Source: Microcystaceae cyanobacterium (GTDB lineage Bacteria > Cyanobacteriota > Cyanobacteriia > Cyanobacteriales > Microcystaceae). From it: a DNA stretch of 64,000 bases. The first letter of the stretch is position 1. Each line of letters starts with the position of its first letter. The DNA is taken from positions 50,277 through 114,276 of the forward strand of contig JBGTGT010000121.1 in the NCBI GenBank assembly GCA_041746575.1, in the 5' to 3' direction. The notes under the pieces are model-generated. The model was not told the DNA's origin and did not search any database. It saw only the letters and a list, made by a program, of their open reading frames with translations. Both the position numbers and the translations under genes were made by a program. Below, in pieces: positions 32,026 through 38,769 of the stretch.

Positions 32026-32571
32026 ATGGGCATAAATCTAATGATTAAAACCCTTCTGCAACGCTTTTGGACGCTTATCGTGATTCTTTTCCTAGCGATC
32101 GCTTGGGTTCTACTGGATGCCTCAGTGGCGATTGCTCAAGAGAAAACGGTAAATCATACCTATGGAGAATTGCGACAGGCGGATTTTTCTCACCAAGATT
32201 TGTTTGGGGGGGTTTTTGCCGCAGCAGATATGCGAGAAGCAAATTTTGAAGGATCTGACCTTTCTTATGCCATTATGACGCAAGGGGTACTATTAAATGC
32301 TAATTTACGAGATGTTAATTTCACGGGAGCGTTAATCGACCGAGTCACCTTTGATTTTGCGGATTTAACCAATGCAATTTTAACCGATGCGATCGCTACT
32401 CGGACACGGTTTTATGATGCCATTATTACAGGTGCAGATTTTAGCAATGCGGTGATTGATGGCTATCAAGTAGCGTTAATGTGTAAGTATGCAGATGGGG
32501 TAAATTCGGCAACAGGGGTATCTACAAGAGAGAGTTTAGGGTGTCGGGAAACCGCTTCTTCAAATCCCTAA
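32026..32571 (+). CDS. Pentapeptide repeat protein (lumenal type)
   Basis: Signal peptide, A(D/N)LxG-type repeats, C-terminal [11 protein letters not shown]. Confidence 0.92.
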
Positions 32572-32766
32572 AAATGCTCTAAAAAAAAGTTTTATTTGTT
32601 TTAAACTCGAGCAAGCGATCACCTTACCTTTTGTAATTACTGCTCTCGTCATTCTTGTTAAAATTTAGTGACTTATTTTAATTATAAGCAACTTTTTCTA
32701 AAATTAGTTAATAGTTGAGTCATAGGAGTTTCCACTCTAGTTCTACTCCTTTGATGGAAGACTAAC

Positions 32767-34179
32767 TTAAATCACTTTTTCTCTTCTTTCAATTTTAGAA
32801 GGAATTTCTGCCCGTCGCAATACATCACCAAAATGACTGGTTATACCGACATCACCCACTAAAATAATTCCTTCATTAATTTTATTAACAGTTGAAATTA
32901 ACTGTCTTAGTTTTTCTAATCCTTGTGTTACATTAAATCGATGATAAGATGAAACGTTACCCGGATAAATTGTATTACCTAAACTCCTAGTTGCACCTTG
33001 ATGAAATTGAACAATCCAAATTGTTTTAGCATCAGCTACCCATTCCATTCTCACTACGCCTAATTGTTGTGCCGCTTGTTCATAAAGATTTCTGACCGAC
33101 TGAATAATATAATTGGGAAGTACGCTCCGTTGTTTTTGTCCTATCATAAATTCTTCTCCATATCCCTTTGTTCCTTCTATAAGAATCTCTCCATTTTCGT
33201 CAGTAATTAATGCACCAGAATACTCTGCATCGATTCCTGATTGCGCTAAAATAGAAGCAATTGCGTTACCATCGGGATCTTCTTGTTTCATTAAATTAAA
33301 AGGATCACACCATCCCCGTTTAGTGGTAAATTTTCCGGGGATTTGAACAGTAGGACAAGTGCGAATCCAAGTTTCACTAAATCCCGTCAATTGACCAAAA
33401 GTAAAGGGAGATACGTTGCGACTAATAACGGTAGTTAAAGGAACTTTAAATCCCGATAAATGAGCAATTAATAGGCCATAAGCTTTATCTCCAATAAACT
33501 GACTAAAACGATTTGGCCAATATATCTTAGCAGTTGCATGGCTAATTCCTACTTCTTCAAGTTCCCAAATTATTGTATGTTCACGCTGAAAACCACGACG
33601 CAAAGGATGAATACTAAATTCAACACGAGTTTGAGGCGAATAATCTAAAAAAGGATTAAAATTGTAGACTGTTTCTAAGAGTTGAAGTCCAAGTTGACGA
33701 GGTAAAGAAGCAGTACCGGGTTTTTCGACACAGCGAGGGGTATCACAGGGTGCAAATTCAATCACATTCCCTAATAAAACCCCTGAAACACCACCATCAC
33801 AGATATCAATAGTTTCATTGACAATAGTATAAAGTCCCTCACCTGCTAAACGTTGCAAGGTTTCTTGTATGATGTTGACTTCTTGGAGTCCATAGACAAA
33901 TTCTCGACTTTTGGGATCTTTAGGATCAAAACTACGAATATTAACCGATTTTTCAGAAGATTGCGCTAGAATTGCGCTAACTGCTTCACTCACTGAATCA
34001 AATTGGTCATTATCTTCGTAGCCATAAATTCTGCTGTAGCGTTGTTCTAATGTGGGGTCAAAACTCACAAATTGAGCAACATTTGCTTTAATAGCTAAGT
34101 TATTGAGAATAGCGTCTTTATAGTGCATTGTCTTTCCATCTATCTTTAATTTTTGGCTGAAATTGATAGAAGAGGTCAC
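32767..34179 (-). CDS. Uncharacterised dikinase-like protein: tandem ATP-grasp (PPDK_N-like) modules plus phospho-His swivel domain
   Basis: C-half GDKA..VP..WIRT..GKFTT..LAQ..SGA..IEG..GYGE..MEW..WIVQ follows the PEP-synthase nucleotide-domain motif order; ends GITSHFGDVLRRAEIP. The GTG start overlaps the upstream stop (GTGA). Confidence 0.7.
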   Translation of the reverse strand: MTSSINFSQKLKIDGKTMHYKDAILNNLAIKANVAQFVSFDPTLEQRYSRIYGYEDNDQFDSVSEAVSAILAQSSEKSVNIRSFDPKDPKSREFVYGLQEVNIIQETLQRLAGEGLYTIVNETIDICDGGVSGVLLGNVIEFAPCDTPRCVEKPGTASLPRQLGLQLLETVYNFNPFLDYSPQTRVEFSIHPLRRGFQREHTIIWELEEVGISHATAKIYWPNRFSQFIGDKAYGLLIAHLSGFKVPLTTVISRNVSPFTFGQLTGFSETWIRTCPTVQIPGKFTTKRGWCDPFNLMKQEDPDGNAIASILAQSGIDAEYSGALITDENGEILIEGTKGYGEEFMIGQKQRSVLPNYIIQSVRNLYEQAAQQLGVVRMEWVADAKTIWIVQFHQGATRSLGNTIYPGNVSSYHRFNVTQGLEKLRQLISTVNKINEGIILVGDVGITSHFGDVLRRAEIPSKIERREKVI

Positions 34180-34805
34180 AACTTTTCTAAATTACTTAAG
34201 ATCTCTTCTATAAAACAGATGTTTCCTTTTCGTTCTTTCAATTGTAAGATAGCTTGGCGAATTAGACTAATCCCAAGTTCAATCTCCAGTTTTTTATGAT
34301 CTTCATTAAAGGTAGGAATTCCTTTTTTTTTCGCTATCCAAAACTCATAAACACATCCATTACTATATTGCCAATCATTAATGAAGAAAGCAGTAGTAAT
34401 ATAACGTTCAATCACTTGTTGCCAAAAATAATGCCAATCTCGTTGTGTCCAATCTGGGATATGGGGAATGGCAGTTGGATCAATTACAATTTTACCTGTT
34501 TTATGGCGCAATTGTTGAATAAATTTCTGTGCTTGTTGACGATTGGGTTCAATGACTTCTTGATAATGATGTTGATGATAGGTTTTATCTGCGCTATCTA
34601 TATCAGCGAAGTTTTTACCAATTCGTTCTAACCAATTAAGATACCGTTTTCCTGATGTAATGGGAGAACTACAATAAAAAACTTCATCTGTGTCTATAAC
34701 GCTTTTATAGACTTCTAGCATCATACACATATTAACGTCACTATCTTTATGATTTTGAGAGATGTCAATTTGGGTTGAATGGTTTGTAGGTGGTACGCTT
34801 AACAT
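34176..34805 (-). CDS. Nucleoside 2'-deoxyribosyltransferase-fold / DUF4406-like protein
   Basis: FYCSSPITSG and FFINDWQYSNGCVYEFWIAKKKGIP match the NDT/DUF4406 pattern Yx(S/A)GP...W..S.G...E...A...G.P. Confidence 0.7.
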   Translation of the reverse strand: MLSVPPTNHSTQIDISQNHKDSDVNMCMMLEVYKSVIDTDEVFYCSSPITSGKRYLNWLERIGKNFADIDSADKTYHQHHYQEVIEPNRQQAQKFIQQLRHKTGKIVIDPTAIPHIPDWTQRDWHYFWQQVIERYITTAFFINDWQYSNGCVYEFWIAKKKGIPTFNEDHKKLEIELGISLIRQAILQLKERKGNICFIEEILSNLEKL

Positions 34806-34826
34806 ATAATTAATAAAAAAGATGTA

Positions 34827-35426
34827 CTATTGTTTGGCTTCAACTTTTTGGATTAGAGAATAAATATCTTTTGAAAGAATATCTAGATTTTTATTGATTT
34901 CTTCAAATTGATTTTTTTCTGGACTAAGTTGTGGACTAAAATCTATCCACTGAAAGAATTTATTAAAAAACAAGAAAACTAAAGTAGCTAAAAGAAGAAA
35001 TCCTAAAAAATTGACTGCTTGACTAACTTGCCACCAAGGTTTAGCTTTGTAGAAATTTGTGTAATGTGTAATTGACCAATATTTTTGAGAAAATTGATCA
35101 TTCAGCTTACCTTCTATTTCTTCTAAATGTTCTCTAGTTGTTTTTCCATAACGATTCATAGGAATATAAATGGCAAGAAACCAACAAGCAAGAGGGATAA
35201 GTGAAATAAATAAGATAATTTCGGGAGGAAAAAAAGTAGCTTTATAACCAAAAGTTAGAATCCCAGCAGAGAGTAAAGCCATATATTGGAAAATTTGCCA
35301 AATAGCTTTATAAATATTCTCATAGCGTTGTGCAGCTTGTTCATATTCTATTTTAAAAAGATCAAGAGTTCGTTCCCAATCTTGTTCATTGAGTAAATTG
35401 TCTTGAGAAGGATGTTCTGTTGTCAT
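34827..35426 (-). CDS. Hypothetical 3-TM membrane protein (effector-like)
   Basis: Helix LFKIEYEQAAQRYE, TM hairpin, amphipathic REHLEEIE segment, third TM, C-terminal coiled coil. Confidence 0.72.
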   Translation of the reverse strand: MTTEHPSQDNLLNEQDWERTLDLFKIEYEQAAQRYENIYKAIWQIFQYMALLSAGILTFGYKATFFPPEIILFISLIPLACWFLAIYIPMNRYGKTTREHLEEIEGKLNDQFSQKYWSITHYTNFYKAKPWWQVSQAVNFLGFLLLATLVFLFFNKFFQWIDFSPQLSPEKNQFEEINKNLDILSKDIYSLIQKVEAKQ

Positions 35427-35485
35427 AGCTTCAAAAATCCTTTTTAAAAAATTGTTTAACTTAATGGGAAAATTAGAGTAGCAAA

Positions 35486-35507
35486 GGTGGGTATAAAACC
35501 CACCCTA
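35486..35507. repeat. REP-like palindrome after carB
   Basis: GGTGGGT-ATAAA-ACCCACC(CTA); reads TAGGGTGGG...CCCACC on the minus strand. Confidence 0.5.
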
Positions 35508-35523
35508 ACTGAAAGTTAAACGC

Positions 35524-38500
35524 TTAAGAATGATAATCCTGAATCGCTTTAACATCTAAGTCTTCATTCTGTAAAGAACGAATCGCTGCAACCGTCGCTT
35601 TTGCTCCTGCAATAGTCGTAATAATGGGTAACTTGTAGTCCAAAGCGGCACGACGAATTTTGCGTCCATCCATTTGGGGTTCTTCGCCGCCGGGGGTATT
35701 AATAATAAATTGAATCTGTTTATTTTTAATCCAATCTACCACATGGGGACGACCTTCATGGAGTTTTAAGACTACTTCTACCCCTTCAATGCCATTGTCG
35801 GTTAAAACTTTTTGGGTTCCGGATGTGGCGACAATTTTAAATCCTAAATTGACTAAATCTTTTGCAACAGGAACAGTCGCTAGTTTATCACGATCGCTCA
35901 TAGAAATAAATACGGTGCCTGTAGTGGCCAAATCAACACCGGCTGCCATTTCTGCTTTAGCAAACGCTTTGCCAAAGTCGCTATCAATGCCCATTACTTC
36001 ACCCGTAGAACGCATTTCTGGCCCTAATAACGTATCTGCACCGGGGAATTTACTAAAAGGTAAAACGGCTTCTTTGACGGCGATATGAGTGGGAACAATT
36101 TCATCAATTACCCCTAATTCTTCTAGCGTTTTTCCTGACATCACTAAAGAGGCAATTTTCGCTAACGGCCGTCCGGTTGCTTTAGATACATAGGGTACAG
36201 TCCGAGAGGCACGGGGATTCGCTTCTAAGATATACACTTGTTCGCCTTGTACAGCGTATTGAATATTCATCAACCCTACTACATTCAACGCATTGGCAAG
36301 TTGGGTTGTCCATTGACGAATCGTATCTATAACCGCAGCAGAAAGGGTCGTAAACGGTAAAGAACAGGCAGAATCTCCGGAATGAACCCCTGCTTCTTCA
36401 ATATGCTCCATAATTCCCCCAATAACGACCTTACCTGTGAGGTCAGATAAAGCATCCACATCTACTTCAATGGCATTTTCGAGGAATTTATCGATTAAAA
36501 TGGGGTGGTCGGGTTCAATTTGCACTGCATAGGTCATATAGCGTTCTAATTCTTCATCAGAATAGACGATTTCCATAGCACGACCCCCCAGAACATAGGA
36601 CGGACGTACCACTACAGGATAGTTAATCTGAGACGCTACTGCAAGAGATTCTTCGTAACTGCGAGCAATGCCATTTGGTGGCTGTTTAATATTTAGTCCA
36701 TGGAGAATTCGCTCGAATCGTTCTCGATCTTCAGCAGTATCAATGGAATCGGGGGAGGTCCCCCAAATTTTGGTTTGAACAGGACAATCGGGACTATCAA
36801 GGTATTTTTGCAGAGGAACAGCCAATTTTAGGGGGGTTTGACCGCCAAATTGCACGATGATACCGACAGGATTTTCCGCTTCAATGATATTGAGGACATC
36901 CTCTTTGGTAAGGGGTTCAAAATAAAGGCGATCGCTGGTATCATAATCGGTGGAGACGGTTTCTGGATTAGAATTGACCATAATTGTCTCAAATCCGGCA
37001 TCAGACAGGGCAAAGGACGCATGGCAACAGCAATAGTCAAATTCTATCCCTTGTCCAATCCGATTGGGTCCACCCCCCAAAATCATGACCTTGGGTTTAT
37101 CAATCGGGGTGACTTCGGTTTCATCGGGTTCATAGGTAGAGTAATAATAAGGCGTATAAGCTTCAAATTCTGCCGCACAGGTATCTACCACCTTATAAAC
37201 GGGAACAATGCCTAATTCCTTACGATAGGCGCGAACTTCATCCTCTTTTGTTTTTGTGGCAAAGGCCATTTGATAGTCACTGAACCCTTGTTGCTTAATT
37301 AAACGCATTTGTGGCGCAGTAATTTGTTTTAGAGGGGTATTTTTGAGAAATTTTTCAGTTTGAACTAAATCGTATAATTTATCTAAGAACCAGATGTCAA
37401 TGGCCGTTAATTCGTGAATTTCCTCCACTGTCATTCCCATTTTCATGGCATGATAGATAGAGTAAACCCGTTCAGGGTTGGGGGTACGTAAGCTGGCACG
37501 GATTTGAGACAGAGAAGGCAAGGTTTCGTTACGCTCACAACCAAAGCCGTGACGACCTGTTTCAAGCGATCTTAAGGCTTTTTGAAAAGACTCTTGAAAA
37601 GTTCGACCAATTGCCATCGCTTCCCCAACAGATTTCATCTGGGTGGTTAAAATGGGTTGGGAGCCGGGAAATTTCTCAAAGGTAAAGCGAGGAATCTTGG
37701 TTACGACGTAGTCAATGGTGGGTTCAAAAGAAGCTGGAGTTTTCTGCGTAATATCATTGGAAATTTCATCTAAAGTGTAACCCACTGCTAATTTTGCCGC
37801 AAATTTGGCAATGGGGAATCCTGTGGCTTTCGACGCTAAAGCCGAAGACCGTGATACGCGAGGATTCATCTCAATAACAATGACATCGCCGTTGGTGGGG
37901 TTTATAGAAAATTGAATATTAGAACCCCCCGTTTCTACGCCAATTTCTCGAATAATGGCCATAGAATAATCTCTTAAACGCTGATATTCTTTATCGGTTA
38001 AGGTTTGTGCCGGCGCAACGGTGATAGAATCCCCAGTATGGACGCCCATCGGGTCAAAGTTTTCAATCGAACAGATAATAACAACATTATCCGCTAAGTC
38101 TCGCATGACCTCCAATTCGTATTCTTTCCAGCCTAAGAGCGATTTTTCTACCAAAATTTGCGATACAGGAGACATATCTAGTCCATATTGTGCCATTTCT
38201 TCATATTCTTCTTGGTTATAAGCAATGCCTCCCCCTGATCCGCCTAAGGTAAACGCAGGACGAATAATGAGGGGATAAGAACCAATTTTTGCAACCGCCG
38301 CTTTGGCTTCGTCCATATTGGTGACAATTTCCGATGGACAACAGGGAACACCGATTTTTCTCATCGCTTCTCGGAATAAATCCCTGTCTTCTGCTTTTTC
38401 GATGGCAGGAAGTTTTGCCCCGATCAATTCTACATTATATTGCTCTAATACTCCCGTTTTTGCCAGAGTAACCGCAAGATTTAAGGCGGTTTGACCTCCC

Positions 38501-38769
38501 ATCGTCGGCAATAAAGCATCAGGACGTTCTTTCGCAATAACTTTGGCGATAATCTCGGGGGTTAGGGGTTCGATATAAGTCCGATTTGCCATTTCTGGGT
38601 CGGTCATGATAGATGCAGGGTTAGAATTGACTAAAACAACTTCATATCCTTCTTCTCGCAGAGCTTTACAGGCTTGTGTTCCTGAATAGTCAAATTCGCA
38701 AGCTTGTCCGATGACAATGGGACCTGCACCTAAAATGAGAATCTTGTTTAAATCGTCGCGGCGTGGCAT
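35524..38769 (-). CDS. carB: Carbamoyl-phosphate synthase large subunit
   Basis: MPRRDD...[17 protein letters not shown], two ATP-grasp halves, MGS domain, 1081 aa. Confidence 0.98.

Follow-up and report, generated by a model that had tools for sequence, protein, structure and literature searches.

A candidate three-gene conflict cassette in a Microcystaceae cyanobacterium combines a truncated dikinase-like protein, an NDT-like protein and a small membrane protein

The window analysed here is a 64-kb stretch (64,000 nucleotides) of the genome of a Microcystaceae cyanobacterium (assembly GCA_041746575.1, contig JBGTGT010000121.1, positions 50,277 to 114,276 of the forward strand). It holds a cassette of three co-directional minus-strand open reading frames (ORFs) between a carB-like ORF and a convergent ORF (Table 1). 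Gene 1 encodes a membrane protein, gene 2 a protein predicted to have the fold of the nucleoside 2'-deoxyribosyltransferases (NDTs), and gene 3, also called BIG, a truncated dikinase-like protein. Genes 2 and 3 belong together as a conserved pair of enzyme genes, frequently joined in one ORF. What stands in third place varies between loci and can be swapped; in the window it is a small membrane protein.

Layout and composition of the cassette

An initial annotation, made by a model from the sequence alone, had described three genes running in one direction from carB to a convergent pentapeptide gene. The three ORFs are indeed present on the minus strand, and we have taken over its labels, so that the 1081-aa ORF is presumably carB and the 181-aa ORF presumably a pentapeptide gene. 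The 21-nt gap that it placed between genes 1 and 2 lies at 34806-34826. The GTGA overlap between genes 2 and 3 (34176-34179) is also present in the sequence, but the GTG start of gene 3 that it contains is probably not used. The database entry of the window's gene 3 protein is 453 aa long, homologues cover 94-99% (mostly 95-96%) of the 470-aa query, and the cyanobacterial relatives start at a Met or Leu aligned with M18; relatives in other phyla carry N-terminal extensions, which are not conserved. Judged from these alignments, gene 3 probably starts at ATG 34128 rather than GTG 34179, in which case the junction of genes 2 and 3 would be a gap of 47 nt.

Only one of the two hairpins said to flank the cassette stands out from shuffled sequence. 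The stem-loop between carB and gene 1 is strong (Table 1), and on the simplest reading it is probably the carB terminator. The cassette would then need a promoter of its own, which we would place in 35427-35485; a promoter consensus scan found sites no commoner than chance. The hairpin on the other side, at about 32720-32754, is at chance level (z -0.66, 43 of 200 shuffles equal).

The visible AT-richness of the three genes was confirmed by measurement, the cassette being the lowest-GC stretch of the window. Its GC content is 0.341, whereas the window averages 0.409 (sd 0.024), and among 614 sliding windows of 2660 nt just 3 reach so low a value, every one of them overlapping the cassette. The HIP1 octamer, GCGATCGC, occurs 30 times in the 64 kb against 0.45 copies expected from shuffles, an abundance that fits a cyanobacterial genome, and the same scan found no copy in 32397-36927. 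Thus the cassette does lack HIP1, as had been noted, yet this is not significant alone because only about 1.25 copies are expected there, and we dropped it as evidence. The window stretch was present in four DNA metagenome runs of one study, with no RNA run listed.

Predicted properties of the three proteins

Gene 3 has more than 2,500 homologous proteins (636 cluster representatives at 50% identity). No family was found for it in Pfam, NCBIfam or PADLOC, and a sequence search of solved structures returned chance-level ICT1 rows only. Its alignment-based AlphaFold2 (AF2) model has a mean predicted local confidence (pLDDT) of 90.5. In an exhaustive structural comparison of this model the best matches were rifampin phosphotransferase (RPH, 5hv1) and HpeI (9goj), small-molecule dikinases that join an ATP-grasp domain to a swivel His (Table 1), and Foldseek returned ATP-grasp ligases together with RPH (E 4e-5 to 3e-4; RPH 2.3e-4). 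At the level of fold, the model points to an ATP-grasp nucleotide-binding domain of the PPDK_N type, named for pyruvate phosphate dikinase (PPDK). The sequence evidence for it is faint, PPDK_N matching 3 of 28 family members weakly, at E 0.021 or weaker. The 'double ATP-grasp' of the initial annotation stands in part, since residues 1-194 match ATP-grasp-type chains only moderately.

Close to the C-terminus gene 3 carries the motif TSHxxxxxRxxxIPS, in which T430, S431, H432 and R438 do not vary in any of the 28 aligned sequences. In hhalign, GITSHFGDVLRRAEIPS aligned on GMTSHAAILAREVGIPA of a phosphoenolpyruvate (PEP)-utiliser domain from the same genome, a weak match (E 0.025) over 30 columns only. 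The PEP-utiliser motif matched by the TSH motif reads G-M-T-S-H-A-A-I-L-A-R-E-V-G-I-P-A. When gene 3 was aligned with the N-terminal 450 residues of the same genome's PpsA-like protein, only the His motif was matched (E 0.064), with no alignment of the ATP-grasp region. Structural comparison supports the dikinase-type ATP-grasp domain first proposed for this gene, and the hhalign matches are consistent with the proposed phospho-His motif. The protein ends 21 residues past the His, a stretch shorter than the Pfam domain PF00391, and so has no third, acceptor-binding domain; the model shows no further domain.

The nearest described architecture would appear, by analogy, to be that of VadK (Rv1127c) of M. 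tuberculosis, which PMC13400623 describes as a truncated PPDK with ATP and His domains only that autophosphorylates. Like gene 3, VadK as presented there lacks the acceptor (PEP/pyruvate) domain, is of similar size and has its His (H422) near the C-terminus. However, the same paper has it acting through partner methylcitrate-cycle enzymes and not through an NDT-like protein, and describes it as PPDK-derived, which sets it apart from gene 3 with its faint PPDK_N signal and no match to PF00391. HpeHI, a dikinase of two components according to PMC12167813, shows that such enzymes can be split, although there the His sits with the substrate domain and not with the ATP-grasp domain. RPH differs from gene 3 in having its own rifampin-binding domain, and neither RPH nor HpeHI has an NDT-like or membrane partner.

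The AF2 model of gene 2 (pLDDT 89.9) has a Rossmann-like three-layer fold of the NDT/TIR type. Its structural matches include 1t1j (Z 9.3), 7m5h (Z 8.0), the 2'-deoxyribosyltransferases 7o62 (Z 7.7) and 6evs (Z 7.6), MilB (Z 6.8) and ThsB (Z 6.5). From Z 9.3 to 5.5 they span NDTs, MilB, RCL and ThsB/TIR, with TIR/ThsB ranked lower, and these values are moderate yet mutually consistent. Foldseek was weak (TIR, E 0.06; the NDT 8rh3, probability 0.82), and a sequence search of solved structures with gene 2 gave nothing useful. Residues 96-164 match Pfam DUF4406 below its 22-bit cut-off (15.6 bits, E 0.022). At E <= 0.1 the same profile hits 18 of 30 relatives (best E 3.7e-4), and in RefSeq the orthologue from a plasmid of Burkholderia gladioli bears the name 'DUF4406 domain-containing protein'.

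Twelve columns are invariant in an alignment of 30 gene 2 sequences, among them S148, G150, C151 and E154. E154 falls inside the DUF4406-matched stretch, and from its position in the motif it may be the equivalent of the NDT catalytic Glu. The NDT-like fold with a conserved Glu that had been proposed for gene 2 is thereby borne out by model comparison and alignment; the two residues singled out at the start, E154 and H449 of the 470-aa numbering (our H432), are both invariant columns. Gene 2 resembles the NDT/DrHyd superfamily (NDTs, MilB, DNPH1/RCL and DUF4406) and the related TIR domains in its predicted fold, and probably in the invariant acidic residue of its SxGxxxE-type motif. It differs in that an invariant Cys stands three positions ahead of the Glu and in its long helical insert. 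Nucleotides are hydrolysed by MilB and DNPH1, and NDT-type proteins serve as retron effectors. The TIR-DrHyd-SLOG clade is described in PMC9503650 as nucleotide-processing enzymes of conflict systems.

Gene 1 has an N-terminal, cytosolic helix, three transmembrane (TM) helices and a C-terminal coiled tail, in agreement with the three-TM protein first called. The hydrophobic segments 63-91 and 133-161 came from a scan, and the first was split by eye into a pair of helices. Pfam 8xMP (PF24838) matches gene 1 over profile positions 3-134 of 136, at E 7.7e-5 and 23 bits (cut-off 30), and 12 of the protein's 30 nearest clusters in the language-model-based Atlas are labelled 8xMP (top score 0.92). 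Among twelve relatives the conserved core comprises E27, Y28, A32, R34, Y35, Y39, W43, F46, Y48, P78, L79, W82, P89, Y93 and E105, the N-terminal helix being conserved as LEYExAAxRYENIYKAIW. We suggest that gene 1 is a distant relative of the 8xMP/RipA family and an inner-membrane protein: the match is nearly full length and the closest clusters carry that label, although the score lies under the gathering cut-off and NCBIfam gave no family match. Pfam and NCBIfam scans likewise matched gene 1 to no transporter family.

Linkage, partners and genomic context

Loci were collected by an alignment-based scan for gene 3 in a collection of 185,579 species, each represented by one genome; a single-protein query found none. 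The scan returned 306 matching stretches, of which the best 80, all distinct loci, underlie the counts given here (handles beginning with L denote such loci). All-against-all clustering of their ORFs was dropped because fusions and over-long ORFs merged the TM, NDT, BIG and X proteins, and family hidden Markov models (HMMs) were used in its place. By this measure gene 2 adjoins gene 3 or lies within 3.5 kb of it in 50 of the 80 loci, in many phyla, and the two form a single NDT::BIG ORF in four, a natural fusion being that of L060; among the 150 best cluster representatives, 28 are NDT::BIG fusions. The 151 Pyrinomonadaceae-family genomes (Acidobacteriota) include seven with both genes, one with gene 3 alone, none with gene 2 alone and 143 with neither, counts to which we attach no statistic because the genomes are kin. 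In all seven genomes the genes lie about 50-130 nt apart. Complex prediction with alignments for genes 2 and 3 gave scores of 0.27 and 0.02, the mark being 0.32.

Co-occurrence of all three genes, as initially envisaged, holds for genes 2 and 3 and only in part for gene 1, whose family was found in 15 of the 80 loci, with one TM::NDT fusion (L068). The order TM-NDT-BIG recurs in 13 of these 15 (the exceptions are L010 and L072), which come from cyanobacterial, Acidobacteriota, Bacteroidota, Nitrospiraceae and Alcaligenaceae records. We refer to this arrangement, with its 8xMP-like TM protein and the window included, as type A. In type B (BIG-NDT-Y; 13 Pyrinomonadaceae loci) partner Y has four to six TM segments and a C-terminal domain for which an Atlas structure search with a low-confidence model returned GAF clusters in 10 of 10 rows (TM-score 0.38-0.49). 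In type C (BIG-X-NDT; 12 loci in Gemmatimonadota and Thermoanaerobaculia) partner X is metallophosphoesterase-like, a signature that is weak (one of three tested, E 0.003), with TM segments and with a C-terminal domain that weakly resembles the one in Y (hhalign E 0.016). In type AAA the order is AAA+ ATPase-NDT-BIG with an IetA/TRIP13-like ATPase (L052, L075, L076 and L060); it was also found on a B. gladioli plasmid, where the gene is annotated as an ATP-binding protein, and on four viral contigs, with the AAA domain confirmed in two. In hhalign the 8xMP-like protein resembled neither X nor Y nor the AAA+ protein. Searching solved structures by sequence gave nothing for Y and only Rv0805 (E 0.5) for X, and neither partner matched a PADLOC model at E <= 1e-8.

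The cassette is foreign and patchily distributed. Gene 3 was found in 4 of 41 close relatives, counting the window's genome, in neither of two same-genus genomes (one only 77% complete) and, in an even class-wide sample of 401 genomes, in the window's own alone. It occurs on 14 plasmids, ten of them conjugative, and in B. gladioli the cassette lies between IS110 elements. Aphanothece sacrum is among the cultured carriers. In Crocosphaera (L001) the cassette also follows a 1081-aa ORF, the length of carB. Relatives with carB directly beside the pentapeptide gene had been expected; instead the two lie on different contigs in the four relatives in which both were matched, so that an empty site is not demonstrable. 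The two same-genus genomes carry different genes downstream of carB, which suggests that this spot may be a variable cargo site in the genus: G001 has other genes there, and G002 has two short carB-strand ORFs in the cassette's place (L085), the first of which resembles an AAA_15/SMC-type ATPase at its start (E 5e-5) and has the look of a split or decayed gene.

A PADLOC scan of the flanks found strong defence neighbours at 5 of 17 type A and AAA loci (L001, L022, L057, L068 and L076; Table 1) and clear ones at 2 of 12 type B and C loci (RmrA at L011, DruA at L018), a third being ambiguous. As raw counts, these figures are no more than suggestive of an enrichment. The PDC-M06B candidate and the MNT/HepT pair of L001 are absent from the window. 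In two unrelated loci, L057 and L076, DUF5131 adjoins the cassette, in one case upstream and in the other downstream and on the opposite strand. The defence-island setting that had been predicted is thus mixed, with such neighbours at these loci and many others in ordinary chromosomal settings.

Gene 2 went undetected in about 30 of the 80 loci, some of which end at a contig edge, and in three Saccharibacteria the gene next to gene 3 encodes an NDT-like protein of divergent sequence (hhalign E 1.3e-4). On a Qipengyuania chromosome (L080) and three Rhizobium/Agrobacterium plasmids (L094, L096 and L097), gene 3 stands without NDT beside a convergent block comprising an adenylosuccinate-synthetase (PurA)-like::kinase fusion, a gene of about 230 aa (DUF7002 in L080) and often a metallophosphoesterase. 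The PurA-like::kinase and DUF7002 domains were confirmed in L080 only, those of the three Rhizobiaceae plasmids resting on RefSeq annotation, and the block looks like a second nucleotide-centred gene set. In Thermoanaerobaculia (L033 and L043) an AddB-like PD-(D/E)XK protein and an AddA-like UvrD helicase-nuclease adjoin gene 3, as do, by annotation, a PD-(D/E)XK nuclease and a UvrD helicase on the Agrobacterium rubi plasmid (L096); AddAB-like neighbours in two distant lineages may not be chance. In Aminicenantes (L062) gene 3 is followed by a 336-aa gene of the queuine tRNA-ribosyltransferase (TGT) family (E 2e-41), a base-exchange enzyme in the usual position of the NDT-like gene. HD/HD_assoc dNTPase-like genes adjoin gene 3 in L074 and L063 and on the viral contigs L103 and L104, and by clustering a gene of the same cluster (c108) lies beside it in L079. 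IMG/VR holds gene 3 at nine loci, none with the gene 1 family, and no INPHARED phage matched it. Across these varied loci the partner range of gene 3 is wider, and more nucleotide-centred, than the operon first described suggests.

Table 1. Coordinates of the cassette and its surroundings, structural matches of the gene 3 model (residue ranges), and features of other loci (locus coordinates)
Feature	Position	Strand	Description
Gene 1	34827-35426	-	ORF, ATG start, 199 aa
Gene 2	34176-34805	-	ORF, ATG start, 209 aa
Gene 3 (BIG)	32767-34179	-	ORF, 470 aa from GTG 34179; likelier 453 aa from ATG 34128
E154 codon, gene 2	34344-34346	-	S148-x-G150-C151-x-x-E154 motif, invariant in 30/30 sequences
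H432 codon, gene 3	32833-32835	-	H449 in 470-aa numbering; motif 21 residues from C-terminus
Stem-loop, carB/gene 1	35486-35505	-	-17.3 kcal/mol, z -4.5, 0/200 shuffles equal
carB-like neighbour	35524-38769	-	1081-aa ORF, strand of cassette
Convergent neighbour	32026-32571	opposite to cassette	181-aa ORF
RPH, 5hv1	gene 3 residues 204-381		Z 12.5, 167 residues aligned, rmsd 3.1
ATP domain of RPH, 5hv6	gene 3 residues 112-377		Z 11.3
HpeI	gene 3 residues 153-390		Z 9.1
PPDK, 1vbg	gene 3 residues 205-383		Z 8.5
ATP-grasp-type chains 4xyl, 7lgm	gene 3 residues 1-201		Z 8.1 and 6.5, moderate
L001	5624-6205		193-aa PADLOC candidate PDC-M06B, E 4e-25, between carB-length ORF and TM gene
L001	10205-11061		MNT/HepT-type toxin-antitoxin pair downstream of cassette
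L022			TIR/ThsB-like neighbour gene
L057	5864-6415		DUF5131 (PDC-M30B/M41B), directly beside cassette
L076	9480-10214		DUF5131 (PDC-M30B/M41B), directly beside cassette; E, over both loci, down to 1e-105
L076			Type IIG restriction-modification and PDC-S37/Hhe neighbours
L068			Type III restriction-modification directly upstream
L103 (IMG/VR contig)	4611-9689		Gene 3 homologue alone beside HD/HD_assoc genes
L104 (IMG/VR contig)	1-4440		Gene 3 homologue alone beside HD/HD_assoc genes
L107 (IMG/VR)	1-11431		Gene 3 alone in phage replication module: clamp, RecA, DnaB, primase, RuvC, PD-(D/E)XK
L080	9365-11658		Convergent PurA-like/kinase block
L094	9243-14020		Same block
L096	9167-11459		Same block
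L097	8359-12941		Same block
L033	9383-16500		AddAB-like neighbours
L043	9383-16410		AddAB-like neighbours
L096	518-6357		Nuclease and helicase neighbours
L062	9446-10456		TGT-family gene
L085	397-1132		Two short ORFs downstream of carB

Candidate functions of the cassette

We tentatively read the cassette, with rather less than even confidence, as a horizontally acquired three-gene conflict system, most likely anti-phage and of the abortive-infection type, with a two-part enzyme core. Gene 3, as a truncated dikinase of the PPDK/RPH type, would bind ATP in its ATP-grasp domain and phosphorylate its own His432. Since gene 3 itself lacks an acceptor domain, its phospho-His may serve the active site of gene 2 (E154 and C151), where a nucleotide or an NAD-like ribosyl compound could be bound, and the two proteins would make or modify a phosphorylated product derived from a nucleotide. 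Gene 1, an 8xMP/RipA-like putative oligomer, would be the swappable output, damaging the membrane once activated by the pair or by its product. We infer the autophosphorylation, the substrate, the product, the trigger, the membrane damage and phage defence itself. A nucleotide second messenger might gate the membrane protein, and the GAF-like domains of partner proteins argue for a diffusible product.

Several observations weigh against such a system. PADLOC-DB v2 (2023) gave no family for any of the three proteins at E <= 1. PF00391 did not match gene 3, though it matched three other genes of the genome, and the hhalign support for the His motif extends over just those 30 columns. Gene 3 is 46-74% identical across phyla, more conserved than is usual in a defence gene. 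No defence neighbour was found at 12 of 17 type A/AAA loci and 9 of 12 type B/C loci, and in Pyrinomonadaceae, Thermoanaerobaculia and Saccharibacteria the settings are conserved and chromosomal (ABC transporter, AddAB-like genes, ribosomal-protein operon). Gene 3 also occurs without its partner: a gene 2 profile run across five gene-3-only genomes found it in none of them (it was found in three of three control genomes), dNTPase-like HD + HD_assoc genes stand beside gene 3 in L074, L063 and the viral L103 and L104, and in L107 gene 3 lies alone in a phage replication module. Finally, a bound complex accounts better than a diffusing messenger for the TM::NDT and NDT::BIG fusions.

The cassette resembles variants of CBASS, Pycsar and Thoeris in joining small enzyme genes to a small TM protein with swappable outputs, in its patchy distribution and in some defence-island neighbours. 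It differs from them in that the three proteins showed no CD-NTase, nucleotide cyclase, canonical TIR or TIR generator in Pfam, NCBIfam or PADLOC scans, and in the enzyme-TM fusion of L068, which is atypical for a diffusible signal. The combination had been described as no named system, and this stands: no PADLOC model fits it, and no paper on it turned up in a literature search whose coverage stopped short of newer or subscription-only work. A characterised example of the dikinase-NDT core was not found, and we regard the core as unprecedented; to our knowledge no characterised member of the NDT/DrHyd superfamily is paired or fused with a dikinase. A more specific proposal, which we hold to be rather doubtful, is an immune chemistry of a class not recognised before. 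The dikinase and the TIR/NDT enzyme would use ATP and a nucleotide or NAD to form a phosphorylated product, ribosyl or nucleotide in nature, to be read by interchangeable outputs: membrane oligomers of the 8xMP type, GAF-like TM proteins and AAA+ ATPases.

Among the alternatives, a somewhat unlikely one makes the NDT::dikinase pair itself the effector, destroying, converting or re-phosphorylating (deoxy)nucleotides, with the partner as sensor, anchor or regulator. Such a pair could deplete nucleotides or make an abnormal one, and gene 3 alone keeps the company of nucleotide enzymes: the HD genes, the PurA-like::kinase with DUF7002, the TGT-like gene of L062 and the phage module of L107. The TM::NDT and the frequent NDT::BIG fusions suggest a single bound complex. 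However, the partners that join TM segments to a GAF-like ligand-binding domain look more like ligand-gated outputs, and depletion of a pool has no obvious need of a membrane anchor.

It is unlikely that the genes form a non-immune accessory system, a small-molecule kinase for uptake and salvage or for detoxification of nucleoside-like compounds, in which the phospho-His would hand its phosphate to a substrate bound by the NDT-like protein at the membrane. Antibiotic inactivation by RPH and group translocation of the phosphotransferase-system (PTS) type offer analogies, the closest solved relatives of gene 3 are small-molecule dikinases (RPH, Z 12.5; HpeI, Z 9.1), and the invariant Cys151 near Glu154 could be a phospho-acceptor. 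The many chromosomal, non-defence settings and the high sequence conservation point the same way. Yet the AAA+ and TM/GAF-like variants are unlike transporters, gene 1 matches no transporter family, and occurrence is sporadic (1 of 401 genomes in the cyanobacterial sample, 8 of 151 in the Pyrinomonadaceae family), with restriction, TIR or toxin-antitoxin neighbours at several loci.

It is quite improbable that gene 1 is an independent passenger, one of the 8xMP/RipA-like genes that would travel alone through variable regions, with only genes 2 and 3 a system: its family is found in just 15 of 80 loci and 0 of 9 on viral contigs, but it keeps the same order and tight spacing (21 nt in the window) in five distant lineages, is fused to NDT in L068, and is replaced in the third position by another membrane or ATPase gene in other architectures.

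The conflict-system reading is to us the most economical, and the cassette is a plausible candidate for a new sort of conflict system that couples enzymes to a membrane effector, good and testable though unproven. The gene 2/3 pair is a widespread family without functional annotation in the records seen, and it would unite two catalytic principles that are well understood, phospho-His swivel transfer and ribosyl chemistry of the NDT/TIR type. Should the product be a signal read by interchangeable outputs, phages with a lone dikinase in their replication modules would be using or countering that chemistry. If the pair proves to be metabolic, it would represent a dikinase of a new, nucleotide-directed type. 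A role of the cassette in defence would add a new enzyme logic to bacterial immunity and offer the obscure 8xMP/RipA membrane family a role that can be tested.

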